A model generated the notes under the pieces. The model was not told the origin of the DNA. It did no database searches and saw only the letters and a program-made list of their open reading frames with translations. DNA of 64,000 nt from Isurus oxyrinchus (taxonomy: Eukaryota), in the NCBI GenBank assembly GCA_026770705.1, contig JANJGN010000071.1, forward strand, positions 2,480,001 through 2,544,000, written 5' to 3'. Shown piece by piece: positions 746-57,923 of this stretch (position 1 is its first letter; the number at the start of each line of letters is the position of its first letter). The position numbers and the translations under genes are program-made.

Positions 746-965
746 TCAGGGGGGAGGTGTCATCACCCCTCAGCTCGGTTTACGTTACAGCTATGATGTG
801 GATTCAGTCACACACAATAAGCTCATGGATCTGGGAGCAGAAATAGACAAATCATTAAAAATAGTGATGCTGGTTAACACGGCCAAAAAACAAGCAAATC
901 AAACACTATTATTTCCCATTGAGTGTTGGATGTGAATTGTTGAGTAATTATAACACAGAAATTAC

Positions 966-1340
966 CAGAAACGTGAAGCTGGGTTTCAGGACGGTCGTTG
1001 TATCTATTCCTGTTGTCAAATTCTATTCTGAAATAATAATATCCTTCATCTCCCCATCTGATGTTGTTTATAAACAGGGAACAGTGACCATCTTTCAGGT
1101 CTCCAGACAGCTGAGTCCGATGGTGGAACCGTGGTAACTTGCGATTATGATCCTTGGAGTGAAAGGCTATAGACCATTCATTCCATGTTTCCCAATTCCT
1201 TCTCATATACCAGATTCCGACAGGTGATCTCGATACTAAATATGATGGATAACTGTAATGACATGGAATCTGTACACACAAACCTTCCTGCGCTGTCACC
1301 TCTCGTGGAGTGTCACCTTTCCACTCTTGTGGTAGTCCAG
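966..1340 (-). CDS. Siglec-like V-set Ig exon (V0), essential Arg present
   Basis: Acceptor ctctccctag, donor g|gtaat, 375 nt, phase 1-1. Peptide EGLCVQIPCHYSYP..GIWY..DGHCSLFI..YYYFRIE has the Siglec Cys pattern (B-E strand disulfide, inter-domain Cys, no F-strand Cys). Confidence 0.9.
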
Positions 1341-1731
1341 CTAGGGAGAGAAATATCAATATTTAACTCTGAATGTTTTGTCAATCCACTAGACTTGATA
1401 TCCACCCCCTCCTTCACTGGGGCACAGTGGCTGCAGTCTGGACTCACAATGAGTGCCCCAAGGTTTCACAACACAATGAAGAGTATCCTGGACACAGGAG
1501 TGGACAAGTTCATTCTACATTGGCTCATGGCCCTCAGGAACATGTTTAGTTAACCCAGTCTTCCACCCAACACAGTGTCTACAAGACGCACTAATTGAAG
1601 TGAGTTCACTGCTGATTTACAACGTAGGACAATGGATTAGGAGCCTTCAGAATTCCCCCATTATCACCATCATGAATCATGAATTGGCCTAGCTGTCCAA
1701 GATCCTCAGTGTCTAAGGCAGTGGTTCCTAT

Positions 1732-28020: not shown

Positions 28021-30797
28021 GGGTTCAGTTATTTAGAATGGGGACATGAGAACAGATATACAAGGATAGAAAGCTGGGAGACACCTGCAGCCAAACTGTG
28101 TGAGCTGTGTTCTGCTCACAGGCCAAAGTGAAACTTGGACTGGATGGTGTTATCATCCCAGCTGATGTTACTACTGGGCAAGTCAGATCCCAGGGTGGAA
28201 CTCAGCTTGATAGGTCCTAACTTTTATTTTTTATTTAGGAATGTGGAGTGCTGCTACTGAACAGAGTCACAGGAATCATCTGATGACCTTCTAACAAAAG
28301 AATAAAACATTTATTAAACTAGGAAAGACAAACTATATTACATTACTCCTTCACCCAGACCTATACCTTTACAGATTCATAAGTAGAATACAAGTTACAA
28401 TAACTATCTTATACTCTCATGTTCACACTAAGTACACAGTTCATGCAAACCAATAGACGACCTGGTGTCAGGGACACCACATTCTGTAACCAAGTGATAG
28501 ACCCCAATTGGAACAAATGCTATGGGTTTCAGCTCAACTGACTCCAGACACTTGTTTCACCATGAGGCAACTGGTCTTACAAAACTGTATCTTTCACATG
28601 AGAGTTTCCAATCTCTACTCGTCAAGTGCTCTCTTTGGAATCTTCTCCAACATGACACTTTCACTCAGAGACCTTCCACAAGGGTCCACTTCCACGATTT
28701 CAAACTCTCCTTCCCATGTTCCTGCCCCCTGGATCGCCACATGCATTCAGCCTTCCTTCTACGCGTTGTCTCTCCAATGCTCAGTCATGCCAATGGAACA
28801 CCATGGCTTCACATGGTCATAGTAAGAAGACATCAACATTTAGCTGTCTCCTATGATCTTCTGGCTTCTAATCAGCCTTTTTTGCTTTAGGTCTGTGTCC
28901 TTTTGCTTTTTCTCTTTTAGCTTGGATCCCTCCTCTGCTCCTCAATCTTATCTCGACTTAACAGGACCTTTTTCAGATTCCTGATCTTCTTTGGAGTAGA
29001 AGGTCTTCTTGGCTCTTTCTCCTGTTCCACTCGATAGTTTTGGCTTCTTCTTTACTTTGGGACTGACTATCTGTCCCGCTCCTTTGCTGCTTCTCCTGGC
29101 AACTCCTTTCAACCAAACTGAAAGCACATTTCTGTTTTTCTCTGTCTCTATGGGTCCATCCCTCTGGATCACTGTTGCTTAGCAATAGCACAGTTTCTTA
29201 CACCTTGTGTTTGTTTTGACTTTCCTTCAAGAGACATCAAACCCCATTAGATTGCTAAACGAAAATGAAACCAAAACTGAAGTTTCACCCTTTCTTAACA
29301 CACAAATACAGAAATCAAACTAAACTTGAACTTAAACATATACCTTATCCCTAACACACACAAATACACATAGAACTTACTTAAGCTATACCCAATTCCT
29401 AAAATCACATGACACACTTCCCCTCGAGTGATGTCATGCTGCTGTCCCTGAAAGGCATATTACAACAGTGTTATCACTTGGCAGGTGATGTGTGCCAGGC
29501 AGACCAAGTCCCTGAGAGAAAGATGGTCACATGATCATAATGATTTTGCAATTTGTATTTATTATGAGATGTGTGCACTGAATTCAGAAGCAATAATTAC
29601 ATAAAGACCTTTAGCGATTTGAAAATTAAATTAAAATACTTGCTCTCAAAATAAATGATTTGAAGCACATACATAACTCTACAATTACCACTATAATAAT
29701 TCTTAAAATTCTGAATTAAACTGACTCCCAGTTACACTCCCTTTAAGGCAACGGTCCAAAAATAGACTTTATATTTAAAACAAACCCAGCAAGTTAACAC
29801 AATATAAAAGCAATACCCTGCACAGAGGAATTCCAAGTGGCTTTTCCCCAACTTCAGTTCTGTTGGATAGCAGGCTTGTGCACAAATGCTAGAGGTTTCA
29901 TTAAGACTATATCACACACTCGTGTTAGATCTTACATGGCATTCTGACACATAGCCTTTCATTCTCCCTGATAGATATATATTTCTCTCTTTGTAACATG
30001 AAAATTCTATTGTTCCATATGTTTTTGAAACTGTATCTTCCACATAACAAACTCTTTCGTGGTGCCCATATTGCCAGGAGCCTTTGAGAAAAATAAACAC
30101 ATTCCTTAGTCTTGCTTATCTGGCTAGTTGTAAACAAGCTAAGATTCCTTTGAAATCCAACAACCCCTTCATTGATAGAAAAATGCAAATTCTCGTCATA
30201 CCTTCCATGCTAAGCAGCATCCATGTTTCCTCAATAGCATGTCAAGCACCTAGCTCCTTTTGATCATTTTAAACTTCCAATCTAATTAACTCCAAATGTA
30301 CTTAAATCACATGCAGACCCATCATGCGTACCCCCATAAACCTACTTCACAATATACTATAAAATATTATGAAAATTATTATACTTACATCACAATAGGA
30401 ACCACTGCCTTAGACACTGAGGATCTAGGACAGCTAGGCCAATTCATGATTCATGATGGTGATAATGGGGGAATTCTGAAGGCTCCTAATCCATTGTCCT
30501 ACGTTGTAAATCAGCAGTGAACTCACTTCAATTAGTGTGTCTTGTAGACACTGTGTTGGGTGGCAGACTGACTTCACTAAATAGGTACCTGAGGGTCATG
30601 AGCCAATGTAGAATGAACTTGTCCACTCCTGTGTCCGGAATTCTCTTCAATCTGTTGTGAAACCTTGGGGCATTCATTGTGTGACCTGTGGATTATCCAG
30701 ACTGCAGCCTGTGTGCCCCAGTGATGGAGGGGGTGGATATTGAGTCTAGTGGATTGAGAAAACATTCAGAGTTAAATATTGATATTTCTCTCCCTAG

Positions 30798-31172
30798 TTG
30801 GACTATCACAAGTGTGGAAAGGTGACACTCCAGGAGAGGTGACAGCGCACGAAGGTTCGTGTGTACAGATTCCATGTAATTACAGTTATCCATCATATTT
30901 AGTAGCGAGATCACCAGTCGGAATCTGGTATATGAGAAGGAATTGGGAAAAATGGAATGAACGGTCTATAGCCTTTCACTCCAAGGATCATAATCGCGAG
31001 TTACCACAGTTCCACCATCGGACCCAGCTGTCTGGAGACCTGAAAGATGGCGACTGTTCCCTGATTATAAACAACATCAGACGGGAAGATGCAGGATATT
31101 ATTTATTCAGCCTAGAATTTGACAACAGGAATAGATACAACGACCGTCCTGAAACCCAGCTTCACGTTTCTG
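30798..31172 (+). CDS. Siglec-like V-set exon V1, essential Arg replaced by Ser (YYLFSLE)
   Basis: Acceptor ctctccctag, donor g|gtaagt, 375 nt open, phase 1-1, Siglec Cys pattern. Confidence 0.9.
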
Positions 31173-31419
31173 GTAAGTGCTGTGTTATAATTACTCAACA
31201 ATTCACATCCAACACTCAATGGGAAATAATAGTGTTTGATTTGCTTGTTTTTTGGCCGTGTTAACCAGCGCCACTATTTTTAATGATTTGTCTATTTCTG
31301 CTCCCAGATCCATAAGCTTATTGTGTGTGATTGAATCCACATCATAGCTGTAACATAAACCGAGCTGAGGGGTGATGACACCTCCCCCCTGAGTGAAGTA
31401 TCTCCTCCCCACTACACCT

Positions 31420-33180
31420 TCCACCCCTCACACTGTCCGTGTAAACCCCCGTCCCATCTCCAGCCTCTCTTTCCCCTCCAAAGTCCTGCAACCTGTTTCC
31501 ATCTCCCGAATCTGTTCCCATCTTTCCCGGAACTCCATGTTTGAATCCCTCCAATCAGGTTCCCACCCCAGCCACTGTGCTGAAACAGCTCTTATCAAGG
31601 TCACAAATGGCATCCTGTGTGACTGTGACAAAGGTCAACTTTCCCTCCTCGTCCTTCTCGATCTGTCTGCAGCCTTTGACACGCTCGACCACACCATCCT
31701 CCTCCAACACCTCTCCACTGTCGTCCAGCTGGGTGGGACTGCTCTCCCCTGGCTCCATTCTTATCCATCTCATCGTAGCCAGAGAATCACTTGCAATGGC
31801 TTTGCAGCATCATCTGAACAGTGTTGGTTTTCACCTGTCCACTGAGGATCCCCAGCTCTACCTCACCACCACCTCTCTCGACTCCTCCACTGCTGCTAAA
31901 TTATCAGGCTGCTTATCCGACATCCAGTACTGGATGGGCAGAAATTCCCTCCAATTAAATATTGGAAAGACTGAAGCCATTGTCTTCATTCCCCGCTCCA
32001 AACTCTGTTCCCTCGCTACCAACTCCATTCCTCTCCCTGGCAGCTCTCTGAGATTGAAGCCAATCTGTTCACAGCTTTGTTGTCCCATTTGATCCTGAGA
32101 TGAGCTTCCGGCCTCCTATCTGCGCCCTCACTAACACCGTCTATTTCCACCTCCGTAACATCGCACGACGTCACCCTGTCTCAGCTCATCTGCTGCTGAA
32201 ACCCTCATCCGCGCCTTCATTACCTCCAGTCTCGACTGTTCCAACACACGCTCTACACTCCATAAACTTGAGGCCATCCAAAACTGCTGACCACGTCCTT
32301 ACTCACACCAAGTCCCGTTCCCTTATCACCCGCTCTGCTCGATGACAGAGACTGGCTCCTGGTCAAGCAAAATGTCAACGTCCAAATTTTCATCTTTGTT
32401 TCCTCACTATCCCTGTAATCTTCTCGTCCTCCTCCAGTACCTACAACCATCCCATTCTCTGTAACCTCTTCAAGCCTCTACCGCTTCCCTATATCTGTAA
32501 ATTCATCCTGCCCAACAAACCTACCAATCTCTGCAACCTCCTCCAGCCACAACAAACCTCCCTATTTCTGTAACTTCCTCCTGCCCCTAAAAGCTTCCCT
32601 ATCTCTGTAGCCTGCTCCAGTCCCGACAACTTTCCCTGCCCCTGTAACCTGCCCCAGTCACTACAACCCTCCCGACCTCTGCAAACTCCTCCAGACTCTA
32701 CACTCTCCCAATCTCTCTTAACTTTTCCAGCCCCTACAAACCTCCCTATCGCTATAACTCATCCAATCACTACAAACCTCGCTATCTCTGTAACCTCCTC
32801 CAGCCCCTACAACCCTCCCTATCTCTGTAACCTCCTCCAGACCCACCAACCTTCAGAGGTCTCTGCGCTCCTCCAATTCCAGCCTCTTGACCATCCCCCG
32901 ATCTCAACACTCTAACATCGGTGGCCATGCCTTCAGCTGCCTGGGGACCGAGCTCCGTAATACCCTCCCTTAAGCCCTCTCCATCCCTCACACTCACTCT
33001 CTCTCTCTCACTAACCATTTCATCCCTCTTTTAAGTTTCTCCATAACACCGATCCCTTCTGGTCAGCTGTCGCTAATATCTCCACATGTGTCTGCGTGAC
33101 ATACTTTGTTTTATGACGCTCCTGTGTAGCACCTTGGGGTGATTTGTCATGTTAAAGTTGTTGTGAAAATATAAGTTGTT
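31420..33180 (+). mobile_element. L2-clade LINE 3' part with embedded 37-bp minisatellite (32410-32850)
   Basis: RT motifs LLDLSAAFDT, LNIGKTE and FHLRNIAR, followed by L2-type 3' sequence. Confidence 0.8.
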
Positions 33181-33299
33181 GCCCTTTGACCCTCGACCCC
33201 AGATTGAGTCTTATTTTTGAGGGAATGTACAACCTGCTTAGATTTCTGACCAAAGTGTCATTTGATTATTTTTATTGAGCGAATGCCAAGCCCCGATAC

Positions 33300-33665
33300 C
33301 GAGCGAGAGCCTCCTCATTTGCTGAGTTTAAGGTGATGAGTCAGCCCCTTAGTCCGTAGAGGGGATTCTCCTCGGTAATGTACAGCCTTGTTTGTGTCTC
33401 TCCACAAGCGCATGAGGGATTTGTACAGAGGCTGCAGCGCTGGAGGGGGTCTGCACAGGGGTCCTGGCCTGTCCTGAGCTGGTTTTAGCAAGGACCACTC
33501 TGGCCTTGGCAGCTGAAAGCCAGCCATTGGACAGACAGGGCCTGTCACAAGGAGCCTGTTAGTCACTCCCCCCCGTGTCTCCTGTGCTCGGATCCAGACC
33601 ATGTTGGCTGGTGGATCTGGCTCAGGAAGGGTCCTCCCCATGGGACCCCCAGATGGAAGGTGGGT
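33300..33665 (-). mobile_element. Non-LTR retrotransposon C-terminal fragment (second copy ~35610-35970)
   Basis: Frameshifted GFQLPRPEWSLL..QLRTGQ..CACGETQT..I resembles the C-terminal zinc-knuckle region of RTE-X/I-like LINEs; clade uncertain. Confidence 0.5.
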
Positions 33666-33719
33666 CGAGCGGGTCAGTCACTTGCATGTTTATTCTGCAG
33701 TTTTAATATTTTAAGAAGG

Positions 33720-34455
33720 TAAGAATGTAGGAACATAAGAAATAGGGACAGGAGCAGGCCATTCGGCCCCTCGAGCCTGCCCTCGCTGATCTGGTTGTGG
33801 CCTTAACTCCATTTTCTTGCCTGTCCCCCAAACCCTTGACTCCCTTGTCGATCAAAAACCTGCCTCACTCAGCCTTGAGTCTATTCAATGGCCCAGCCTC
33901 CACTGCTCTCTGGGGAAGAGAATTCCACAGGCTAGCGCCCCTCTGAGAGAGGAAATTCCTCCTCATCTCAGTCTTAAATGGGAGAGTCCTCATTCCGAAA
34001 CTGTGCTCCCTGGTTCTAGATTCCCCCACGAGGGGGAAACATCCTCCCAGCATCCACCCTGTCAAGCCCCCTCGGAATTGGATATGTTTCAATAAGGTCA
34101 CCCCTCATTCTTCTAAACTCCAATGGATACAGGCCCAACCTGCTCAACATTTCCTCACAGGACAAACCCTTTAGTCCCAGGAATCAGCCCAGTGAAGCTT
34201 CTCTGAACTGCCTGTACACAATGATCCTGTTACAATCTCACTAACGCCCTGTGCAGCTGTTGCAAGACTTCCCTCCTTTTATACTCCATCCCTTTGCAAT
34301 AAAGGCCAACATTCCACTTGCCTTCCTCATTCCGTGGTGTTCCTGAATGCTGACTTTCTGTGATTCATGTACAAGGACACCCAGATCCCTCTGTACTGCA
34401 TTCTGCAGCCTGTCTCCATTTAAATAATATCCTGTTTTTCTATTCTTCCTGCCAA
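33720..34455 (-). mobile_element. CR1-clade LINE 3' fragment (second copy ~36030-36765)
   Basis: QRDLGVLVHESQK..KASGMLAFI and RNFLSQRGASLWNSLPQRAVEA. Confidence 0.85.
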
Positions 34456-34576
34456 AATAATTTGTTGCCATTCTCCTCAGTATTGACCATCCCCCCAATT
34501 CAGCCTCATCTGTAAATTATGAGTCTAGTGGATCCACAAACCATCCAGAGATAAATATTGAGATTTCTCTCCCCAG

Positions 34577-34945
34577 TTGGACTGTCACAAGAGTGGAAAG
34601 GTGACACTCCACGAGAGGTGACAGCGCAGGAAGGTTCGTGTGTACAGATTCCATGTCATTACAGTTATCCATCGTGTCTGGAAAACCAACCGCGAGGTGG
34701 ACTCTGGTTTAATAATGAGAAACAGATTCCCTGGGCTCCCATTGCCTTTCACTCCAAGGATCACAGTCACGAGTTACCACGGTTCCACCATCGGACCCGG
34801 CTGTCTGGAGACCTGAAAGATGGCGACTGTTCCCTGATTATAAACAACATCACATGGGAAGATGCAGGACCTTATTTTTTCAGAATAGAATTTGACAATG
34901 GTCCGAGCCATAACTATTACCCTGTAACCCAGGTTCACGTTTCTG
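34577..34945 (+). CDS. Siglec-like V-set exon V2, Arg present (PYFFRIE)
   Basis: Acceptor ctctccccag, donor g|gtaagt, 369 nt open, phase 1-1. Confidence 0.9.
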
Positions 34946-36883
34946 GTAAGTGCTGTGTTATAATTACTCAACAATTCACATTCAACACTCAATGGGAAAT
35001 AACACAAACTGTGACGTTTACATATTAACACAAAACACAGGTTATTATAACACACTGTCTGATTCTCAATAACCTGGTGATAGCTTCCAGTTCAGTCCTA
35101 AAGCAACCTCTAATACTCACTTTAATATCAATGATTAAATGTGTTGACTGTGTCTATCAATGTTATCAGTTTATCCACTCCCATCAATCTCTCAAATCCT
35201 GTCTTGAAGTCTGACATATCGACAGAAGAAAGATTTACATTTCTACAGCGCCTTTCACCACCCTAGACTTCCCACCCTAAACCTCTCCCTCTCCCTCTTC
35301 CTCTCCCTCTCTCTCTCTCTCTCTCTGTCTCTTTCTCTCTGTCTCTCCATAACACCGACCTCTTCTGGTCAGCTGTCGCTAATATCTCCACATGTGTCTG
35401 GGTGACATACTTTGTTTTATGACGCTCCTGTGTAGCACCTTGAGGTGATTTGTCATGTTAAAGTTGTTGTGAAAATATAAGTTGTTGCCCTTTGACTCTC
35501 GACCCCAGATCGAGTCTTATTTTTGAGGGAATGTACAACCTCCTTAGATTTCTGACCAAAATGTCATTTGATTATTTTTATTGAGCGAATGCCAAGCCCC
35601 GATACCGAGCGAGAGCCTCCTCATTTGCTGAGTTTAGGGTGATGAGTCAGCACCTTAGTCTGTAGAGGGGATTCTCCTCGGTAATGAGCAGCCTTGTTTG
35701 TGTCTCTCCACAAGCGCATGAGGGGTTTGTACAGAGGCTGCAGCGCTGGAGGGGGTCTGCACAGGGGTCCTGGCCTGTCCTGAGCCGGTTTTAGCAAGGA
35801 CAACTCTGGCCTTGGCAGCTGAAAGCCAGCCATTGGACAGACGGGGCCTGTCACAAGGAGCCTGTTAGTCACTCCCCCCCCGTGTCTCCTGTGCTCGGAT
35901 CCAGACCATGTTGGCTGGTGGATCTGGCTCAGGAAGGGTCCTCCCCATGGGACCCCCAGATGGAAGGTGGGTCGAGCGGGTCAGTCACTTGCATGTTTAT
36001 TCTGCAGCTTTAATATTTTAAGAAGGTAAGAATGTAGGAACATAAGAAATAGGGACAGGAGCAGGCCATTCGGCCCCTCGAGCCTGCTCTCACTGATCTG
36101 GTTGTGGCCTTAACTCCATTTTCCTGCCTGTCCCCCAAACCCTTGACTCTCTTGTCGATCAAAAACCTGCCTCACTCAGCCTTGAGTCTATTCAATGGCC
36201 CAGCCTCCACTGCTCTCTGGGGAAGAGAATTCCACAGGCTAGCGCCCCTCTGAGAGAGGAAATTCCTCCTCATCTCAGTCTTAAATGGGAGAGCCCTCAT
36301 TCTGAAACTGTGCTCCCTGGTTCTAGATTCCCCCACGAGGGGGAAACATCCTCCCAGCATCCACCCTGTCAAGCCCCCTCGGAATCGGATATGTTTCAAT
36401 AAGGTCACCCCTCATTCTTCTAAACTCCAATGGATACAGGCCCAACCTGCTCAACATTTCCTCACAGGACAAACCCTTTAATCCCAGGAATCAGCCCAGT
36501 GAAGCTTCTCTGAACTGCCTGTACACAATTATCCTGTTACAATCTCACTAACGCCCTGTGTAGCTGTTGCAAGACTTCCCTCCTTTTATACTCCATCCCT
36601 TTGCAATAAAGGCCAACATTCCACTTGCCTTCCTCATTCCGTGTTGTTCCTGAATGCTGACTTTCTGTGATTCATGTACCAGGACACCCAGATCCCTCTG
36701 TACTGCATACTGCAGCCTGTCACCATTTAAATTATATCCTGTTTTTCTATTCTTCCTGACAATATAATTTGTTGCCATTCTCCTCAGTATTGACCATCCC
36801 CCCAATTCAGCCTCATCTGTAAATATCGGGTTCAGTGGATCCACAAACCATTCAGAGTTAAATATTGAGATTTCTCTCCCCAG

Positions 36884-37249
36884 CTGAACCCTCACAAGAG
36901 TGGAAAGGTGACACTCCACGAGAGGTGACAGTGCAGGAAGGTTCGTGTGTACAGATTCCATGTCATTATAGTTATCCATCATGTCTGGAAAACCAACCGC
37001 GAGGTGGAGTCTGGCTTAATAATGAGGAATGGAGAACATCGTCTATAGCCTTTCACTCCAAGGATCACAGTCACGAGTTACCACGGTTCCACCATCGGAC
37101 CCGGCTGTCTGGAGACCTGAAAGATGGCGACTGTTCCCTGATTATAAACAACATCACATGGGAAGATGCAGGACCTTATTTTTTCAGAATAGAATTTGAC
37201 AATGGTCCGAGCCATAACTATTACCCTGTAACCCAGGTTCACGTTTCTG
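36884..37249 (+). CDS. Siglec-like V-set exon V3, Arg present (PYFFRIE)
   Basis: Acceptor ctctccccag, donor g|gtaagt, 366 nt open, phase 1-1. Confidence 0.9.
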
Positions 37250-37977
37250 GTAAGTGCTGTGTTATAATTACTCAACAATTCACATACAACACTCAATGGG
37301 AAACAACACAAACTGTGACGTTTACATATTAACACAAAACACAGGTTATTATAACACACTGTCTGATTCTCAATAACCTGGTGATAGCTTCCAGTTCACT
37401 CCTAAAGCAACCTCTAATACTCACTTTAATATCAATGATTAAATGTATTGACTGTGTCCATCAATGTTATCAGGTTATCCACTCCCATCGATCTCTCTAA
37501 TCCTGTCTCGAAGTCTGACTTAGCGACAGAAGAAAGATTCACAATTCTGTAGCACTTTTCACCACCTCAGCATGGACCAAATCACTTCACAGCCAATGAG
37601 CTGATTCCTGAATTGTAGTTACTATTGTAATGTGGGAAACACAGCAACCAATTTGTGCACAGCAAGCTCCCACAAATTGCAAAGTAAAAAATGGCCTAGA
37701 TCGCTGAGGGACTGATGGGTTAGTGCACTCCAAACTCTGGTCTGCTCCACCACCCTCACCCACTATTATCAGTTCAAGTGTCTCGGAGTGAACGTGTATT
37801 AAGCTGAGAGACAGAAACACCAAAGTCTCAAAGCAGGAAATTCTCTCCTAATCATTGTAACCTCTCAGATCTGATATCATCCTTGTAAAAGTGCTTTCTC
37901 TTGTGGGACTGTGATTTCTATTTGAACTGATACTTCACGTTATATTTCTCTAAAAGGATCCATTCTCTGTCTGTTAG

Positions 37978-38274
37978 ATTTCACAGATAAACCCATGATA
38001 TTCCCTGCTGAAATTATTGCAGGAAAGCGTGTGGATGTAAGCTGCACCTTCAACACAACGTGCAATGGAACAGCAGCACCTGTCTTAACCTGGGACACTC
38101 CCACTGACGTACCTGGATCAGTCTCAAACACTGTAACTCAGCATGGTGTCACTCTGACCTATACTTCTGTTCTGACCCTGATCCCATCACTCAAACACCA
38201 CGGACACACTCTCAGCTGCAGAGTGAGATATCCATCTGTTTCATCGGAGCGGACCCTCGTACTAACTGTGCAAG
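37978..38274 (+). CDS. Siglec domain-2 C2-set exon DFTDKPMIFPAEIIAGKRVDVSCTFNTTCNGTAAPVLTW...LSCRVRYP...LVLTVQ
   Basis: Acceptor ctgtctgttag, donor caag|gtaaga, 297 nt, phase 1-1; extra Cys (TTCNG) for the V-C2 inter-domain bond typical of Siglecs. Confidence 0.9.
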
Positions 38275-38599
38275 GTAAGAACGGACACCCTTCATTCTAC
38301 ATCAGCACTCCCTCAGCGCTGACCCTCTGACAGTGCAGCCCGTTCTCAGTGTCCACATTCTCATGCCTCTCAAAGTGCTTCACAGTCGATAGAAGTTAAC
38401 TGATCTTTATTTGATTGTTGCTGAATGAAGAGACAAGCTGTCTAAACTTTGCATCTCACACACATTATTTTCCATGGCAACACCTCCTCCAATCAGAGAC
38501 CACTTGCTGATTAACCAGCACTCTCTTCCCTTTAAATATAAATTGTTGTTCACTTTCTGTTGGTAAACCTGCAATCTGTCTTGTTGAGTCCGGTCCTGA

Positions 38600-38749
38600 C
38601 ATCTGAATATCACAATGAACAGAACAAGTTCCAACAATGAGCTGTGGTTGGTGATTCCTCACGTTACATCCAGGGACACTGGAGACTATCAGTGTGCTCA
38701 GAGAATGAACATGGAGCAGTGGAGGGGTTCATAACCATCACTGTGGAAC
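38600..38749 (+). pseudogene. Broken third Ig exon (3' half only, frameshifted)
   Basis: HLNITMNRTSSNNELWLVIPHVTSRDTGDYQCA, 1-nt shift at ~38699, then ENEHGAVEGFITITVE with donor c|gttagt. 5' half and acceptor are absent. Confidence 0.75.
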
Positions 38750-39863
38750 GTTAGTTAAGACAAACTTCAACATCTCTCTCAGATTGAGACACTACAAAAA
38801 CACACATAAATATCCAGCCTTAAACAGACACCTGCAGACACACAATCCCACATCTATGAGCACACACAAAGGCACACTCACAAACAAACACACTAGCACA
38901 TACTCCCCTGTGGATTACCTGACCTCCCTCAGTGCTGCACCGGAGAGTTGACCTGGATTCTGGGATTTGTGTTCCCTTTCATATTTATGGAAGAATATGG
39001 AAATTGCAAAGTCTATTACAGACACTCAGATGCACAGAGATACTCACAGATACTCTCTGCCTCTCCAACTCTCTATCCTACTTTAAGAACCTTCCTGAAA
39101 TCTAACTCTTTGACCAGTCACCTGTCCCAATTCCTCCTTACGTGATTTTGTGTGAAATTTTGTTTGAGTATCTGAGAGTAAGAGGGAAGTGGAGAGGTTT
39201 AGGAAGGGAATTCCTGTTGGTGAAAAGCTTACATCAAGTTCTCAGCTTTCCAGTGCCCATTTTTCACATGATGTCCATGTTCATAATGGGGATTGCCTAT
39301 GTAAACATCACGCTGTAGTTACACTCTCCCACCAGTGGTAGCACGGTAACACTTAACCCTTGCATCTCCAAGCTTTTCAAGCAATTTCACTTCCTAATTT
39401 GCTACTATTCACCTTAACCAGTCCCTGTGGGAGCGAGTTCCATATTCTCCCCTCTCTCTGGGTAAAGATTGGAACTGTTTATTAAGCGGGGGGTGTAAGT
39501 CCGTGTGGGAGTCCATCCCGATACTGCCCGATTCGCACACACGTCCGAGATGGATTTCCACCCTGCACTAAACGTTTCCAGAATTTTCTACAGCACAATC
39601 CTGTACACAGCGATGGAGAGAAACATTGGACAGGGAGTCCAACAGCACAATGATCCATTCTCACCAATGTTCCACGCTAAGGGGAAAGTTCCGATTGTCC
39701 ACTCTTAGAGTGTTTACAATGAAAACATTCATTCCACATTGAATTCCAGTGGATGGGTCAATATTACAGCAAATGTTGCAGTGATATGAAGCTTGATTGT
39801 TCAGCCAGAGTGAGAGATTGAAAGCGGAGAGTCAGTGATGATTTCTTTCTGTGTGTTCTCTAG

Positions 39864-46639: not shown

Positions 46640-47160
46640 TCACACATTCACTTGCACACTCACACACCCATACCCACACAGACACACTGACACACTCACT
46701 CATTCACATTGACACACACTGACACAGTCACACACACCCACACAGACACACTGACACACTCACTCATTCACATTGACACACACTGACACAGTCACACACA
46801 CCCACACAGACACACTGACACACTCACTCATTCACATTGACACACACTGACACAGTCACACACACCCACACAGACACACTGACACACTCACTCATTCACA
46901 TTGACACACACTGACACAGTCACACACACCCACACAGACGCACTGACACACTCACTCATTCACATTGACACACACTGACACAGTCACACACACACACACA
47001 CACACACACGCTGACACAATCACACACATTCACATTGACACGCACTGACAGTCACACATACACACACACACGCTGACACAATCACACACATTCACATTGA
47101 CACACACATATTGACAGTCACACACACACGCTCATAAAGATAGACACAAACACAGTCACG
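46640..47160. repeat. CA-rich ~64-bp tandem repeat
   Basis: Direct reading. Confidence 0.9.
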
Positions 47161-47460
47161 TGAGGTGAATAGTGTCGATGTATTTAAGGGGAAGCTGGAT
47201 AAACACACGAGGGAGAAATGAATAGAAGGATATGGTGATGGGGTGAGATGGAGAAGGGATGGGCGGAGACTCGTGTGGAGCAGAAACACCAGCATGGAGC
47301 AGATGGGCCTAATGGCTTCTTTCCCTGCTGTAAAACGCAGGTAAAGTTTCAGTTGGAATTAATGAACAGGGCCTGTGTGAAATAGATTGCTAAGCAGTAG
47401 ATAAGGAGGGGAGAGGCTGTGGCATGGTGCAGGATGACCTTGCGTGAATGAGGCCAGGGT

Positions 47461-47577
47461 CTAATATCTACAGCAGAGACCACAAGTCTCATTTGGTTCT
47501 CTCCAATTACAGCAGTTACAGCAGAATCTGCAGTGCCGCTGTCTGCTCATTCTCTTCTGGCGCTGCAGCAAGGAGCC
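47461..47577 (-). CDS. hamp: Hepcidin exon 3: GSLLQRQKR/MSRQRHCRFCCNCCNWREPNETCGLCCRY*
   Basis: Acceptor cctcctgcttttccag, furin site RQKR, eight Cys in hepcidin order (C-x2-CC-x-CC...C-G-x-CC), TAG at 47463-47461. Confidence 0.92.
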   Translation of the reverse strand, partial: GSLLQRQKRMSRQRHCRFCCNCCNWREPNETCGLCCRY

Positions 47578-47654
47578 CTGGAAAAGCAGGAGGACAATAG
47601 GTGAGAACATTCCGGAAAGAAAGAAGGCATCATTTCAATCAGGCGCGTCATTGG

Positions 47655-48345
47655 AAGGAGGATGGCGCATTTCTATAGCGCCTTTCCCCTCCTCAGGATG
47701 GCCCAAAGTGTTCCACAGCTGAAGGAAGGACTTTTTCTGAAGTGAGCTCACCGCTGTAATGTAGGAAACGCAGCAGGCAATTCACGCACAGCAAGATCCC
47801 ACAAACAGAAATGTGATAATGGCCCCGATTTTCAGTTTTTTACCAATGTCAGTTGAGGGATAAATGTTTGCCCCAGGAAAGCGGACATAACTCCACCCCA
47901 TCCACCCCCCACCACCCCCTCCACACATACCCCCAACTCCTGACGCACTTCATTTAAATTGTGGCCATGGAATCCTCTACATCCATCTGAGAGGGCAGAT
48001 GTTGTCTCAGTTTAACATCTCATCTGAAAGACAGCGCCTTCAACAGTGCAGCACCCCCTCAGTACTGACCCTCCGACTGTGCAGCACTCCCTCAGTACTG
48101 ACCGTCTGACAATGCAGCACCCCCTCAGTACTGACCCTCCAACAGTGCAGCACTCCCTCAGTACTGGCCGTCTGACAATGCAGCACCCCCTCAGTACTGA
48201 CCCTCCGACTGTGCAGTCCCCCGCCGGTACTGACATTCTGACAGTGCAGCACTCCAAGACTGACCGTCTGACAATGCAGCACCCCCTCAGTACTGACCCT
48301 CCGACTGTCCTGCCCCCCCGCCGGTACTGACCCTCCGACAGCTCG
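47655..48345. mobile_element. Deu-type SINE running into a 33-bp minisatellite (48040-48345)
   Basis: gcatttctatagcgcctttc..gcacagcaagatcccacaaac..catctcatctgaaagacagc, then tandem units; sibling copies at 50030-50620 and 61755-62025. Confidence 0.65.
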
Positions 48346-49875
48346 GTAATTTCTCAATTATGCCTGGTGGTCCTTTTAACTCAGAGCTGAGAGTTGCAGA
48401 GAATCGAGCACACATCCTGAACTGACACTTGCAGTGCAAGTACTGGGAGCGCGCTGGTCATTATCATGCTGCTGTCTGTGGGATCTTACTGTGCGCCAAT
48501 GGCTGATTCTTTTCCCACATTACATCAGTGACCTCACATGAAAGAAAAAAAGCACTTGATTGTCTGCGAAACACTTTGGGACGTCCTGATGTGTTGGAAG
48601 GCGCTAGAGAAATGCAAGTCCTCTTTGTCTTTCACTCGATCCTCTAAGGTGTCTGTTGATTAACCAGCCTCTCGGTGTATGATGTAGGCCTGGTTATAAA
48701 CAGTTAGAAGGATCAAATATCAAAAGTGCTTTGGCTGACAGTCAAACCGATTGTGCATTCGGAGAGATTAGATATGGTCTGCACACAATGACTCCAGTCT
48801 CTGGCATTGACTGCCGCCTGGGGTCTCCCTTCCACATAACACTCACAACTTGCATTTACACAGCGCCTCTGACATTGCAAAATGTCCCAGCCCACATTAC
48901 CGGAGCGTAAATCAGAGAGAAGTCTAACACTGAGTCACATATGGAGATATTAGGGATAGGTGACCAAAAGCTTGGTCAAAGATGTCAGTTTTTAAGGAGC
49001 GTCTTAAAGGAGAGAGAGAGAGAGAGGCAGAGAGGTTAAGGGAGGGTATTCCGGAGCTCAGGGCCCCAGGCAGCTGAAGGCACGGCCACCAATGGTGGAG
49101 CGATGGGAATCAGGGGGACCCGGGAGATGCAGTAATTTCAGAGATTTTGGAGGAACATCGGGACCGGAGGAGGTGTTCTCCTGCTCCATATCTCTCTCTC
49201 TCTTCCTCTCTTCCACTCCTCCTCTCCCTGTCTCTCTCTCTCCTACTCTTCCGCTCAATTGACCTCTCTCCCAATCTTTCTCTCCTCTCTCCCTTTTCCT
49301 GTCTCTCTCCCTCTCTCTCTCCCTGTCTCATTCTCCCACTCTGTATCTCTCCCTCTCTCTCACACTATTTTTGTACCTTTCGCTCACTCTGTAACTCTCC
49401 CTTTCCTGTTAATTTCTCTCTCTTGGACAATCTCTCTTCCCTTTTCACTTTCCCTCACTCTGCATCTCTTCTTTAATTTCTCCCTCTGTCACTCTCTCCC
49501 ACCTATGTTCTTTCCCTTTCACCCCTCCCCGTCCCACTCTCTGTCTCTCTCTTCCAATCCCTCCCTCCCCCATTCCATCCCTCTCTCCGACTCTCGACTC
49601 CCAGCCTCTCTTTAACCCACTCCCAGGCTGGATCAGTCTCCCTCTCACTATTCCCGGCGTGGGTTACATTTAAAATTCCTGTGGGGATATGTTCACTTCC
49701 TTGGAATTGCCTCTTCCCAGCTTTGCAAAAAAAGGGGGGGGGGGCTCGATTTCAAACATGCCTCCTGAGTATAACCGAGACAGACTGCCACTGAAATCAG
49801 CTTGAAATCAGAAAACTTTCTGTGGAAGAAACGAGCAGGGAGAAACCTTAAAATAAGGAATGAATTTCCACCTAC

Positions 49876-49932
49876 CGTGTCCGGGGAATCCACAGATTTC
49901 TCAATCGTCGAAGAACCTAAAGCAGTGTCAAC
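49876..49932 (-). CDS. hamp: Hepcidin exon 2 (prodomain) VDTALGSSTIEKSVDSPDT
   Basis: Acceptor ttctttctttttgcag, donor acg|gtaggt, 57 nt, phase 0-0. Confidence 0.8.
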
Positions 49933-50029
49933 CTGCAAAAAGAAAGAATTTATCAGGGAGAAAGTGAGAGGAGGATTGAGGGAGAGGGAGAGAGAGAGAG
50001 AGAGGTACAGGAGAGAGAGGGGGAGGAGG

Positions 50030-50620
50030 ACAGACTTGCATTTCTCTAACGCCTTTCACCACATCCCAAAGCATTTCACAGCCACTGAAGGATGTTTTTG
50101 AAGTGCACTCACACTGTAGGAAATGTGGCAGCTGATTTGTGCACAGCAAGATCCCACAAATAGCAATGTGATCATGGCCTAGATCATCTGTTTTTGGTGA
50201 TGTTGGGTGAGGGATAAATATTGGTCCCAGGACACCGGGGAGAACACCCCCTGCTCTTCCTCCAAATAGTGGCTTTGGGATCTTTCACACCCGCCCGAGA
50301 GGGCAGACGGGGGACTCGGTTTAATGTCTCATTCAACATTGTTGTGCTCCCTCAGTACTAACCCTTTGACACTGCAGCACTCCCTCAGTACTAACCCTTC
50401 GATAGTGCTGCACTCCCACAGTATTGTCCCTCCGTCAGTGCAGCGCTACCTCAGTACTGACCCTCCGACAGTGCAACACTTCCACAGTACTGACCCTGTA
50501 ACAATGCAGCACTTCCTCAGTACTGACCTCCGACAGTATAGCACTCACTCAGTACTGTCCCTCCAATAGTGCAACACTTCCACACTACTGACCCTGTGAC
50601 AGTGCAGCACTCCCTCAGCA
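50030..50620. mobile_element. Deu-type SINE plus 33-bp minisatellite in hepcidin intron 1
   Basis: Same body as 47655-48045, followed by tandem units. Confidence 0.65.
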
Positions 50621-50689
50621 CGGAGTGTTGACCGACGTTATGGGACTGAATTCCCTGGAGTGAGACTCAGACCAGAGATTTAGGTAGGG

Positions 50690-51540
50690 TTGTTCCGGCT
50701 GGAGGAGGTTACAGCGATAGGGAGGGTTGTAGAGGCTGTAGGAGGTAACAGAGATAGGGAGGGTTCTAGAGGCTGTAGGAGGTGACAGAGATAGGGAGGG
50801 TTGTAGGGGCTGTAGGAGGTTACAGAGATAGGGAGGTGAGTAGGGGCTGTAGGAGGTTAAAGAGATGGGGGGGGTTGTGGGGGCTGGAGGAGGTTACAGA
50901 GGTAGGGAGGGTTGTAGAGGCTGGAGGAGGTTACCAAAATAGATACTGTTGTAGGGGCCATAGTAGGTTACAGAGATAGGGAGAGTTATAGTGTGGAGAG
51001 GACGTTATAGAGTTCATGAGCATTGTAGGGGCTGGAGGAGGTTACAGTGATTCTGAGGGTCGTGGGGCCTGGAGGAGGTTACAGAGATAGGGAGGGTTGT
51101 AGGGCCTGGAGGAGGTTACAGAGATAGGGAGGGTTGTAGGGTCTGGAGCAGGTTACAGAGATAGGGAGGGTTGTAGGGTCTAGAGGAGGTTACAGTGATC
51201 ATGAGGGTTGTGGGGCCTGGGGGAGGTTACAGAGATAGGTAGGGTTGTAGGGGCTGGAGGAGGTTACAGAGATAGGGAGGTTTATAGGGGCTGGAGGAGG
51301 TTACAGAGATAGGGAGGGTTGTAGGGGCTGGAGGAGGTTACGGAGATAGGGACAGTTGTAGTGGCTGGAGGAAGTTACAGAGATAGGGATTGTTGTAGGG
51401 GCTGGAGGAGGTTACAGATATAGGGAGGGTTGTAGCGGCTGGAGGAGGTTACAGAGATAGGGAGGGGTGTAGGGGCTGGAGGAGGTTACAGAGATAGGGA
51501 GGGTTGTAAGGCCTGGTGGAGGTTACAGAGATAGGGAGTG
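50690..51540. repeat. 37-bp minisatellite (ggaggaggttacagagatagggagggttgtaggggct)
   Basis: Direct reading, about 22 copies. Confidence 0.9.
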
Positions 51541-51739
51541 GCTGAGGAGGGATTGAAAACAAGAATGAGAATTTCAGGGGAAACGACAGAAGGAAATGAT
51601 GTTAAATTCATAGAGGGCGACAATATTAAAGGCACGAACATAATAATATCAAACTGCGGAAGAGACCAGTCTATCTGGGTGGTAGACGTAGAGTCATGTG
51701 CAAGAAACACCTCACCCAGAGGGACATCTCTTAGCTTAC

Positions 51740-51817
51740 CCTCGACAAGGAGAAGAAGTGACTCAGCTGCAGGGAGAGCAGCAAAGTCAGAGTGAACAAG
51801 ACAAGTCGCCATTTCAT
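51740..51817 (-). CDS. hamp: Hepcidin exon 1 (signal peptide) MKWRLVLFTLTLLLSLQLSHFFSLSR
   Basis: ATG 51817, hydrophobic core, donor agg|gtaagc, phase 0; gives an 83-aa prepropeptide with exons 2 and 3. Confidence 0.82.
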
Positions 51818-51899
51818 CTGGGAGCTTCCCATCTCTGCCTGTCTCTTCTGATCTTCTGGCTCTGCTTTGATGCTTTGGTTTGTAACTAGAGGAGCTTCC

Positions 51900-52120
51900 T
51901 GCTCTTATACCTGAAACACTTGAAGGGGACAGCCGGGGGCGGGTTGCTGTGTGGTATCACACCCATTTCTGGATATTGCAGTGTCGATGTTCCCTGTCCC
52001 ACTGGCCTGGGACCAGCAGTAAGGTCACTGGGACATTGACTGTCTGGCACCGAGAACTATCAGTCCCTCCGCAACGCCCTTCACCTTGTGCAAATATGTG
52101 TTCATATTGATGCAACACAA
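51900..52120 (-). promoter_or_regulatory. Putative hepcidin promoter
   Basis: TATAAGA at 51909-51903, GC box ~51934-51943, C/EBP-like ttgtgcaa 52086-52093, tgatgcaa 52108-52115. Confidence 0.5.
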
Positions 52121-52469
52121 CATAGCAAAAACAGAGGGGCTGGTTCTTATGTCGGCAAATCAGGTGAACCGCATGCCCCCTAACCCCTTACTCCTCTCAT
52201 TGCTACACTTACTATTTTACAAATTGTGTGCGTTGCTTTTATTTTGGACAAGGGGCCTCGAGGGGGAACTGATTTACGCTGAGGTTTAGGGGTTAACTGT
52301 TTACCATGTGGAGACTGTCTGTCACCAGCTTTGTTCATGGTTTATCCAGGAACATTGAAGGGCATGAACGTTCTTGCTTTGTATGGAACAAGTTACCAAC
52401 TGGGTTCAGTCATCGACTCAGACTCACATCAACATAAACTGGCTTCTGACAGGTAAGTTTCTATTACAT

Positions 52470-53050
52470 GAGGGTAGGAGGAGGCCATTTGGCCCCTCGA
52501 GCCTGCTCCACCATTCAATGAGATCATGGCTGATCTGCAAACTAGCCCCATATGGCTTTGTCCCATCTCCTTTAATACCTTTGGATAACAAAAATCTATC
52601 AGTCTCACAGGTTTAAAATGAACAACTTGATCGTGCATCAGTTCCTGTTTGGGGAAGAGAGTTCCAAATTTCTCCCACCCTTTGTACTTCCTAATTTAAT
52701 TCCTTTTTAGGCTCTGACCCTGAGTCCCAGACTCCCCCCAACCAGGGGAAATGGTTTCTCTTTATCGCCCCCGATCTGTTCCCCTTATTATCATGCGAAC
52801 TTTCATCAAATCTCCTGCTTAACATTCTAACTTCCAGGGAATACAAGCCGAGTTTGTGTTTAATCTCTCCTTGTGATTTAACCCTTGGAGTCCCGGTCTC
52901 ATTCTGGTAAACTGACACTGCTCTCCCTCCGAGGTCAATATATCCTTCCTAAGGTGTGGGGCCCAGAATGTCTCACAGTGACTCCAGGTGTGGTCTAGCC
53001 AGGGCTTTATGTAGACTGAAGCATGACCTCTGCCCCCTTATATTCTAATC
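52470..53050 (-). mobile_element. CR1-clade LINE 3' fragment
   Basis: LGLYSLE remnant and CR1-type 3' end. Confidence 0.7.
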
Positions 53051-54149
53051 CGTGAGATAGAAAGGGCAGAGTTCCAGAATTGTTGTGTTTATTCGACAAC
53101 AGAATAACAGAGGAAGGTTTCCTCTCTGCCCTCTTCAGCCCCACTGGGAAGGTCAGGATGAGAAGGTTGGGCTGGGTCCCCTGTACTGGACACTCGCTGA
53201 ATCTTCCAATGATAGTTCTGGGCTGGATTTCAAAACGCATAGACAAGGATTCAGTGTTCCATCACATTCTGCCTTTGTCTCTTTTCCTCTCGTTCTCTTT
53301 CTCTACCATCCTCTCTCTCTATCTATCTATCTTTCTCCTCATTCTCTCCTGCTTCATCTCTATCACTTTCTTTCTACTTCTTTGTGTGTCTCTGTCTGTC
53401 TCTCTCTCTCACTCTTTCTTTCCTTGTCCTTATCTCTTTCAGTGTCTCCCTCTTTCTCTCTCTCTCTCTCTCTCTAAATGTGACCCTCTCTAACAGTTTG
53501 GCCCAGTACTCTTATTTCCCTGTTTTACTGGTGTTCCATTTGAAGGTATACAAGACCAGATCAGACCAGAATGTTTATTTTCCAGTGTTTACTGTGTTTT
53601 TTTCATTCTGGGTGTCTCTCGACTCTGTCTGTCCCTCTCTGTCCTTTTATTTCATTCTTTCATGTGATGTGGACATCACTGCCTAGGCCAGCATTTATTG
53701 CCCAACCCTAATTGCCCTTGTTCAGAGGCCACTTTTTAAAAGTGAACCACATTGCTGTGGGTCTGGAGTCACATGTAGGCCAGACCAGGTAAGGACAGCA
53801 GATTTCCCTCCCTAAAGGGCATTTGTGACCCTAATACAAGAATCAGCAATGGTTTCCTGGTCATCATCGGACTTTTAATTCCAGGTTTTTATTGAATTGA
53901 AATTCCACCAACTGCTGTGGTGAGATTCTAACCAGGGTCCCAGGAGTATTACACTGGGTCTCTGGATTACTGGTCCAGCGAAAATACCATCAGGCCCCCT
54001 CCTCCCCACTCTTCCCTTCCACCATCTTTCACAATCGCTCTCTCTCTCTCTCACTCTCCTTCTCTCTTCCCCCTCTCTCAGTCTCTGTCTGTCTCTCAAT
54101 CTCTCTATCGCTCTCTATCTCCTGGAGGCTCTCTCTCTGACTGTCTCCC

Positions 54150-56368: not shown

Positions 56369-56772
56369 GTTTGAGCCTCACGCCCGGTGGTTGTTTCCTG
56401 TCCCAGCTGAGGACTGGCGCCATGTTGTACATCCTGTAAATCCCGCCAGTCTCTCCCAGCACTTTCCATGCCTGGCGCTATTTCCATGGTGCGCTTCAAA
56501 TCGATGTCGGCTTCTGCGAGTAAACGGCTCTGAATGGCGTTGGGGTGAACGACACAAACCAATCGGCCCCGCAACATGTCATTGAGTGTGTCTCCGAGGT
56601 CCCAGTGCTCAGTCACCTGCTTCCACTTCACTGTATAGGTTGCGATGGACTCTCCCTGGGCCCTTACTCTGGAGTTAAACTTAAACCTCTGCATTATTAC
56701 CCACGGCTTCAGCTGAAAACAGATCTTCATGAGGTCGACTAATTGGTGAAAAGATTTAGAATTGGGTGCAAT
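55700..56772 (-). mobile_element. Gypsy gag-protease fragment, related to the 18538-21882 element
   Basis: MQRFKFNSR..LNDMLRGRLV, knuckle CSRCGGH..CHHC, GEGPSLLGRDW. Confidence 0.8.
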
Positions 56773-57057
56773 ACACGTCACTGTCTTCAGCTCTGAGACT
56801 ATCAATCCTCACCAAACAATTCTTCCCTTCCAAGTCGCCGATTATTTTAGCACGTCCCACGAATGTGGCCACCCCATAATTGGGATCTTTGGTGTATGTG
56901 ATGGTATATTTCCATCTATACCAATATTTATACCAAGCTCCGTGCAGTGCTGTGTAAGAGTGGGAAGGAAAGTCAAAGCTACACGGAATAACCACACAAG
57001 AGCTGCTGATGGCCCTCCGAGGCAGCGCCTTCATAGACCATCCCTCTGACGTCACTC
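56772..57057 (-). pseudogene. Divergent Siglec-like V exon truncated at the F strand
   Basis: Acceptor ttgcctttcag; GVTSEGWSM..SSCVVIPCSFDFP..GAWY..GRAKIIGDLEGKNCLVRIDSLRAEDSDVY, then Gypsy sequence and a stop. Confidence 0.8.
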
Positions 57058-57119
57058 CTGAAAGGCAACAAGGGAGGGGACTGGACATCAAAAAGCAGAA
57101 TATTACTTCAATGGAGAGA

Positions 57120-57560
57120 GTCTACAGAATGCGGTACAGAGGGATCTGGGTGTCCTTGTACATGAATCACAGAAAGTCAGCATTCAGGAACACCACGGAA
57201 TGAGGAAGGCAAGTGGAATGTTGGACTTTATTGCAAAGGGATGGAGTATAAAAGGAGGGGAGTCTTGCTACAACTGTACAGGGCGTTGGTGAGATTGTAT
57301 CAGGAGCAGTGTGTACAGTTCTGGTCTCCTTACTTAGGGAGGGATAGACTCTGCATTGGACGCAGTTCAGAGGAGGTTCACTGGGCTGATTCCTGGGATG
57401 AAGGGGGTTTGTCCTGTGAGGAAATGTTGAGCAGGTTGGGCCCTGTATCCATTGGAGTTTAGAAGAATGAGAGGTGATCTTATTGAAACATATAAGATTC
57501 TGAGGTGGTGGGGGGTTTGACAGGGTGGATGCTGAGGGGATGTTACCCCTTGTGGGGGAA
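57120..57560 (+). mobile_element. CR1-clade LINE fragment
   Basis: LLQLYRALVRLYQEQCVQFWSPYL. Confidence 0.8.
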
Positions 57561-57877
57561 TCCTGTGAAGCAATAAGGATGTTTTACTGCATTAAAGGTG
57601 CTATATAAATGCACTGTCATTCCTATTGAAACAAGCTCTCTGATGCACAAACAGAAAATGCTGGAAAAACTCAGCAGGTCTGACAGCATCTGTGGAGAGA
57701 GAAACAGAGTTGGTGTTTCGAGTCCGTATGAGGCTTTTGCTTTTGCTAAATTCTCTGACTCGCTAATCACTCACTCTCTGTGTGATCACTAACCCTGTTC
57801 TCTAAAATTAAATGTTCACTTCCTCACTCCAGGAAAGAATCCAATTCCCTGAGTTCCGATCAGTAATGAATTTGTAC

Positions 57878-57923
57878 CTTGCAGCAAGCTGATGAAGATC
57901 AATATCAGACCGACCTCTCCCAT
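57878..57923 (-). CDS. Leader exon of second Siglec-like gene, MGEVGLILIFISLLQ; exon spans 57878-57937
   Basis: Acceptor ttttccatttag, donor caag|gtacaa, phase 1, in frame with the V exon at 57057. Confidence 0.75.

Follow-up and report, generated by a model that had tools for sequence, protein, structure and literature searches.

The window, a 64,000-nucleotide stretch of contig JANJGN010000071.1 from the Isurus oxyrinchus assembly GCA_026770705.1, carries a hepcidin gene on the minus strand and several Siglec-like exons. The features are given below, where C34 denotes the contig that carries the canonical hepcidin genes of the same genome.

877..1362, minus strand: Siglec-like V-set exon (Pfam and open-reading-frame reading)
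30776..38778, plus strand: Siglec-like cluster, with V-set open reading frames at 30776-31261, 34555-35025 and 36862-37329
37926-38309, plus strand: C2 exon of the Siglec-like cluster (Pfam and open-reading-frame reading)
38600-38778, plus strand: frameshifted Ig exon of the Siglec-like cluster (sequence)
47160..47460, minus strand: approximate 3' UTR (end of RNA-like depth in the 47074-47247 bin)
47461..47577, minus strand: hepcidin exon 3, with propeptide end, RQKR site, mature peptide and TAG (open frame, Pfam, transcript joint)
47464..47550, minus strand: predicted mature peptide, 29 residues, eight cysteines, derived N-terminus (translation)
47485..47508, minus strand: Cys5-Cys6 loop of eight residues (translation)
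47493-47485, minus strand: N-E-T sequon in the loop (translation)
47551..47562, minus strand: furin-type site RQKR, predicted cleavage (sequence)
49876..49932, minus strand: exon 2, propeptide, 57 nt, phase 0-0 (splice sites and transcript joints)
51740..51832, minus strand: coding part of exon 1, putative signal peptide (hydrophobic stretch by inspection; joint 49930-51738)
51905..51909, minus strand: TATAA box 77 nt before the ATG, common to the C34 copies (sequence comparison)
51970..53500, minus strand: rearranged upstream region (comparison with C34)
57103-56771, minus strand: degenerate V-set-like stretch upstream of the hepcidin gene, without a Pfam match
57923-57878, minus strand: putative signal-peptide exon upstream of the hepcidin gene, recognized by eye, within 56771..57923

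The initial annotation had placed a 29-residue hepcidin peptide at 47464..47550, and the peptide proved to be the last part of an intact three-exon gene. Read on the minus strand, 47464-47550 gives MSRQRHCRFCCNCCNWREPNETCGLCCRY, followed by a TAG stop. All three exons have GT-AG, phase-0 boundaries, the GT donor of exon 1 being intact in this copy, and the open frame encodes a precursor of 88 residues with the prepropeptide layout of signal, pro region and furin site. The signal-peptide call is based on inspection and on homology with annotated hepcidins of sharks. The eight cysteines lie in hepcidin spacing, and a 39-residue stretch scores 31.6 bits against Pfam Hepcidin (PF06446, cut-off 27), the 29-mer alone scoring 24.4. 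The top PDB sequence match of the peptide is also a hepcidin (1s6w), with the CRFCCNCC core in both and a weak E value of 0.13; an AlphaFold2 model is helical and of low confidence (pLDDT 62, pTM 0.30). A chance open reading frame was ruled out by the GT-AG phase-0 exons and by the transcript contigs that join there. The absence of His3 and of hydrophobic residues at positions 4 and 6, also noted initially, holds for the window copy, which has R3, Q4 and H6. A second R-x-x-R (47542-47553) ends at mature residue 3, is found in most copies of the array described below and could direct further N-terminal trimming of the mature peptide.

At the array genes, the core promoter abuts sequence that on C34 lies about 3.4 kb and about 11 kb farther upstream. 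The rearranged region contains TTGCACAA at -261, which we take to be a candidate C/EBP-like motif, and in the 1 kb scanned for promoter motifs neither gene type has a perfect match to a STAT or BMP element. Neither AATAAA nor ATTAAA occurs in the 461 nt past the stop of the window gene.

The canonical pair on C34 and the home locus

A search of the genome for a second, canonical hamp, as the initial annotation had advised, found two: the two best genome matches to Pfam Hepcidin are both on C34 (15.20 and 15.23 Mb). This pair encodes the canonical-type MSHLSICMYCCGCCNKKGTKKTCGYCCKL (MSHLSIC...), which has the His3 and hydrophobic residues 4 and 6 of type 1 that the window copy lacks. The C34 mature peptide is identical to that of the basking shark, the closest named relative, at 27 of 29 positions, and to that of the catshark at 26 of 29. 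The pair is flanked on one side by a PP2A scaffold-subunit exon and Siglec-like exons and on the other by FFAR-like genes, for which close matches (E 1e-25 or better) were obtained only on C34. Since these Siglec/FFAR flanks fit the human gene order, which we take to be HAMP-MAG-CD22-FFAR, we regard C34 as the home locus; of the expected Siglec/MAG-like and FFAR neighbours, the window has Siglec-like exons only. The two FFAR-like genes next to the canonical hepcidins are located at C34:15265303 (L134) and 15292763 (L137), L134 being apparently frameshifted. A search for LSR as a further synteny marker gave matches on C18, C452 and C1620 and none on C34.

Canonical elasmobranch hepcidins (the C34 pair, Cetorhinus XP_078389754.1 and Scyliorhinus XP_038670190.1) have the same exon sizes as the window gene, 93/57/117 nt, and likewise eight cysteines and an eight-residue loop with a final Thr. 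The signal and pro regions of the window copy and of one canonical C34 copy (L042) agree at 52 of 59 residues. In contrast, 16 of 29 mature residues are changed, with loss of His3, Leu4 and Ile6, the net charge is +3 instead of +5, a sequon has been gained and the upstream region is rearranged. The initial view of the window gene as a derived paralog is upheld by the canonical pair on C34, together with the accelerated amino-acid change in the mature peptide.

The eight-residue loop with N-E-T, which had been taken as an oddity and a mark of neofunctionalization, is indeed present, but a long loop is ordinary in sharks and rays. Among 17 named elasmobranch hepcidins, the Cys5-Cys6 loop has eight residues in 10 and four in 7, with 10 residues in a chimaera, and eight are also found in both canonical C34 copies; as canonical shark and ray hepcidins commonly have the long loop, it was rejected as a novelty and does not mark neofunctionalization. 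The conclusions of the elasmobranch comparison are the same with the Huso and Xenopus rows left out. The sequon itself is kept in all 85 in-frame array copies, and both Mobula sequences have N-R-T at its position, before Cys6. Because the Thr is ancestral, the Asn20 sequon required only one base change. Sequons 10 residues from a C-terminus and beside a Cys are often under-occupied, and N-glycosylation of the array peptide at N-E-T, as read from the sequon, is conceivable, although we would sooner expect the site to be unmodified. The description of the peptide as cationic did not hold for the peptide as a whole, which is less cationic than the canonical form: the net charge (K+R-D-E) is +3 in the window peptide, +5 in the C34 canonical peptide and 0 to +4 in intact array copies, with a mode of +2.

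A hepcidin array interspersed with Siglec-like exons

The Pfam Hepcidin search of the genome returned 97 rows, 85 of them exon 3 of an array and two the C34 pair; the last 8 rows were weak (E 0.7-9), and weak matches on C126 and C988 have stops inside and were rejected as hepcidin copies. With three further exon-3 copies reached via exon 1/2 loci, the number of array copies that have exon 3 comes to 88; 43 of these are intact, and between them they encode 21 distinct mature peptides. The array, which is the main feature here, had escaped the initial annotation. The 88 copies lie on 13 contigs (C52, C71, C121, C150, C189, C323, C385, C546, C557, C646, C724, C838 and C926) of 0.23-4.2 Mb each, together about 13.6 Mb. 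First-look DNA candidates numbered 130 for exon 1, 121 for exon 2, 91 for exon 3 and 132 for the upstream region (40 scored each). We examined 112 array loci, the window and 111 others, with about 20 more exon-1 candidates lying outside this set.

An open frame with all splice sites is found in 43 of the 112 loci; 3 are frameshifted, and in 24 the stretch examined contains no exon 3. Of the 88 exon-3 copies, 45 are damaged or incomplete in that stretch. One lesion, a GT>TT change at the exon 1 donor (window position 51739), affects 38 loci, 35 of them with exon 3, and spans loci with many different mature peptides, which makes it a marker of recombination between copies. The 24 loci without exon 3 (L021-L039, L159-L165) keep exon 1 and/or exon 2, and in many of them similarity to the window stops near 48040, in intron 2. 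The basking shark annotation contains isoforms joining exons 1-2 to unrelated ends (P0027, P0028).

All eight cysteines are present in every intact copy; cysteine loss was seen in two copies only, both splice-dead, and one copy (L158) has gained a Cys. The furin-type site of the 43 intact copies is RQKR in 34, RQNR in 7 and HQNR in 2. Apart from the shortened MGRF start, His3 and a hydrophobic residue 4 are missing from every intact array copy; Leu6 is common. A 6-nt in-frame deletion in L035, L038, L119, L120, L151 and L152 leaves four residues ahead of Cys1.

An array on contigs this small, with copies 93-100% alike per exon, might be suspected of being a false duplication of one or a few genes during assembly. 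We rejected this explanation, which now appears very improbable, on the distinctness of the copies, on deletions that differ between them and on the occurrence of both orientations. Across 1947 aligned columns, 67 haplotypes are distinct among 68 copies, with a median of 36 differences, and only 8 copies are within 3 differences of another; unmerged haplotypes would at most halve the copy count. The four-gamete test was failed by 65 of 120 site pairs in 74 copies, indicating that the copies are mosaics.

A Siglec-like V exon of the window had 1063 first-look candidates in the genome, of which 150 were scored, at 92-100% identity, and these lie on the array contigs and on three other small contigs. 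The presence of Siglec-like V exons on the array contigs indicates a repeated unit made up of hepcidin and Siglec-like exons, and, on these sequence matches, there is a very large expansion of Siglec/MAG-like V-set exons alongside the hepcidin array. Within the window, several V exons stand in tandem and just one clear C2 exon was seen.

Array-type spliced transcripts exist in one sample, as a class and not for the window copy specifically. Four runs (X1-X4), all from one sample of organism A, were assessed by contig depth, and their label as RNA is a guess. The transcript joints, which have CT..AC ends on the plus strand, lie at 49930-51738 and 47576-49875, and the array-type last codon of exon 2 appears in junction contigs and loose ends in all four runs. 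Depth in X1-X3 was 1e5-8e5 on exon 3/UTR bins against mostly 1e1-1e3 on non-repeat intron bins, and an X4 contig spans 47209-47497 with 5 differences from the window. Canonical-type junctions in X1-X3 reached about 19k, 14k and 6.5k, while total depth at 47259 was 207k, 621k and 136k, which hints that the array type dominates over the canonical type, contig depth being a poor measure; in X2, the listed array-type joint is shallower than the canonical-type joint. In one X3 contig, the loose end behind exon 2 (49934) matches the upstream putative signal exon (57878-57923), and a read-through splice into the hepcidin gene is possible there.

Divergence and origin of the derived peptide

Between array and C34, 30 of 87 nt differ in the mature region, 43 of 528 in the flanks (intron 2 and 3' UTR) and 12 of 177 in the signal and pro regions. 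Non-synonymous differences in the mature peptide amount to 25 in 73 sites against those 43 in 528 flank nt (Fisher p 1e-8, JC ratio 5.3), that is, a dN/flank of about 5. Differences in the first six mature codons may reflect small indels, and with these codons dropped, the excess is still significant (21 of 69 nt, p 1e-6). Since the C34 peptide is nearly identical to those of basking shark and catshark, the change sits on the array branch.

Within the array, 78 copies hold 22 non-synonymous variants and 1 synonymous variant in the mature region, a ratio that, taken alone against site counts, is not significant (p 0.09). The non-synonymous diversity (piN) is 0.046 in the mature region against about 0.002 in exons 1-2. 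Variants common to at least 3 copies occupy 18 of 87 mature sites, 35 of 550 flank sites (p 6e-5) and 0 of 150 sites in exons 1-2, with flank diversity estimates around exon 3 being noisy (0.006-0.037). The dN/flank of about 5 against C34, together with the near-invariant signal and pro exons, points to positive selection on the mature peptide after duplication.

Second hepcidins are also found in Rhincodon (XP_048450757.1, XP_048448137.1), Stegostoma ('hepcidin-1-like', P0025) and Heptranchias (XP_067831447.1). Like the array, they no longer start with SH(L/I/V), and their Cys1 is followed by K/R-F and their Cys7 preceded by Ile or Leu; unlike the array, they occur in 1-2 annotated copies per species and have no sequon, and those of the carpet sharks Rhincodon and Stegostoma have a four-residue loop instead of eight. 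None of the 6, 7 and 31 matches of three protein profile searches was of array type, and a protein search with the 40 residues of array-type exon 3 alone, which is weak evidence, gave no candidate.

Two origins of the derived form can be weighed. The array could represent an old shark type 2 held in common with the carpet sharks, with its signal, pro, intron and UTR sequences overwritten by gene conversion from the canonical gene. A tree of mature peptides, of 29 columns only, does place the array and the second hepcidins of Rhincodon and Stegostoma in one group (100/100), and such an origin is compatible with an immune role of the peptide. The tree of signal and pro regions, however, groups the second hepcidins with the canonical gene of their own lineage and nests the array with basking shark and C34 (99/98); it requires three origins, and a single clade is rejected both for all of them (p-AU 2e-5) and for array plus carpet sharks (p-AU 1.5e-4). 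Furthermore, 12 degenerate codons encoding the same residue show 1 silent difference fixed against both C34 copies and 1 polymorphic, near the 8% of the flanks, and Cys5-Cys6 loop length tracks species and not hepcidin type. As silent sites are about as diverged as flanks and loop length goes by species, convergence is favoured: on these sequence comparisons, we consider it likely that the derived forms arose by convergence, and an old type kept by gene conversion unlikely.

In the proposed history, a segment with hamp and Siglec-like exons would have been duplicated away from the home locus; its upstream region would then have been rearranged and its mature peptide remodelled under positive selection. 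Unequal crossing-over or gene conversion would have multiplied the segment and reshuffled it, and about half of the resulting copies would have decayed.

Function and relation to known hepcidins

By analogy with teleost hamp2, we lean towards the array peptide being a secreted innate-defence effector that has lost control of ferroportin. The peptide would be made as a secreted precursor, with cleavage behind RQKR releasing a 29-mer with four disulphides. The ferroportin epitope of hepcidin comprises residues 3, 4, 6 and 9 (PMC7915682). With the His3/hydrophobic patch gone, ferroportin uptake would not be triggered, so the peptide could be produced in bulk without withholding iron, and the Arg and aromatic gains of the core (R8, F9, W16, R28, Y29) would act on microbial surfaces. 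Sea bass offers a precedent, with ferroportin lowered by hamp1 and not by hamp2, and with hamp2 protective in infection and leaving iron unchanged (PMC5665920, PMC8502971). Results elsewhere in teleosts are mixed: two of the croaker Hamp2 peptides lacked antibacterial activity and one increased iron in macrophages (PMC6240063), and seahorse hampII had weak antibacterial activity (PMC9073008). Two findings in the array itself speak against a defence role, namely that net charge went down from +5 to about +2, where a simple cationic antimicrobial trend would have raised it, and that about half of the exon-3 copies are broken.

The broken copies would be expected if hepcidin had multiplied only as a passenger inside an expanding Siglec-like segment, its peptide drifting once freed from iron control and having no selected new role. 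For every hamp locus there are about 8 Siglec-like V exons (1063 against 130 first-look candidates), which, being far more numerous, possibly drive copy number; the damage to 45 of 88 exon-3 copies, the 24 of 112 loci without exon 3 and the wide spread of one splice-killing change also fit. Drift predicts a dN near the neutral rate, not about five times it, and would not preserve eight cysteines in every intact copy and almost invariant signal and pro exons; array-type spliced transcripts are present as well. We therefore judge a mere passenger improbable, but hitchhiking may explain the copy number even with the peptide under selection. Alternatively, the peptide could be an altered hormone that still signals, engaging another receptor or one of the three ferroportin paralogs as ligand or antagonist. 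Diversification is seen among the receptors too, with three ferroportin loci (L141-L150; C14:56.75-56.78 Mb, C14:74.67-74.73 Mb and C3:138.65-138.68 Mb), that at C14:74.7 Mb having Gly at the position of human Cys326 and the other two keeping Cys, and the array peptide has Phe9. However, 21 variant peptides with surface-wide changes better fit a changing microbial target than a single host receptor, and the window copy lacks His3 and the hydrophobic residues 4 and 6, so an altered hormone seems quite unlikely. A defence effector remains our preferred reading.

Our searches, which covered few subscription journals, found no paper on shark hepcidin paralogs or their expansion, although a mention in a shark genome paper or in nurse shark protein tables is possible; hepcidin has been detected in nurse shark plasma (PMC9207270). 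Tentatively, and with more doubt than confidence in the claim as a whole, this may be the largest hepcidin family so far: a recombining set of more than 40 intact genes encoding about 20 peptides, possibly N-glycosylated, co-amplified with about 1000 Siglec-like exons as one innate-immune cassette. An iron-independent hepcidin would then have arisen separately at least three times in sharks, the array being one case, each time converging on hamp2 residues. The split between iron hormone and defence peptide, described in teleosts, appears to have taken place in sharks too, apparently repeatedly, with matching residue changes. It offers a natural test of whether hepcidin's antimicrobial surface is defined by these convergent residues, and of what uncoupling from ferroportin gains. 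The hepcidin and Siglec-like array of about 13.6 Mb can easily be overlooked by gene annotation, and the analysis also brought to light three ferroportin paralogs, one without Cys326.

The window gene resembles human hepcidin-25 (HAMP) in its cysteine spacing, and human HAMP presumably has the same three-exon prepropeptide layout and Siglec/FFAR neighbourhood as in shark. Unlike the array, HAMP is a single gene with a shorter loop and the His3/Phe4/Ile6/Phe9 epitope (PMC7915682). The closer parallel is with teleost type 2 hepcidins (sea bass Hamp2, croaker LcHamp2, seahorse hampII; PDB 1S6W), and the likeness to hamp2 proposed in the initial annotation is well founded: like the array, these are extra copies beside a conserved type 1, multiplied in particular lineages, with a fast-evolving mature peptide that has lost the QSHL-type start. 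The cores also agree, CRFCCNCC followed by CG-L/I/V-CCR-F/Y, including that of sea bass hamp2 (PMC8502971). Orthology to teleost hamp2 was rejected, as the tree of signal and pro regions, which holds no teleost hamp2 rows, nests the array in shark canonical genes, and Hamp2 is given as restricted to Percomorphaceae and Ovalentaria in PMC6240063. The array also differs from teleost hamp2 in layout, its copies being interspersed with Siglec-like exons at distances of tens of kb and about half being broken, and in scale: its 43 intact genes and 88 exon-3 copies compare with 6 hepcidin genes in croaker (PMC6240063) and at most 11 hampII genes, in fugu (PMC9073008), so that its copy number is several times the largest in the literature covered.
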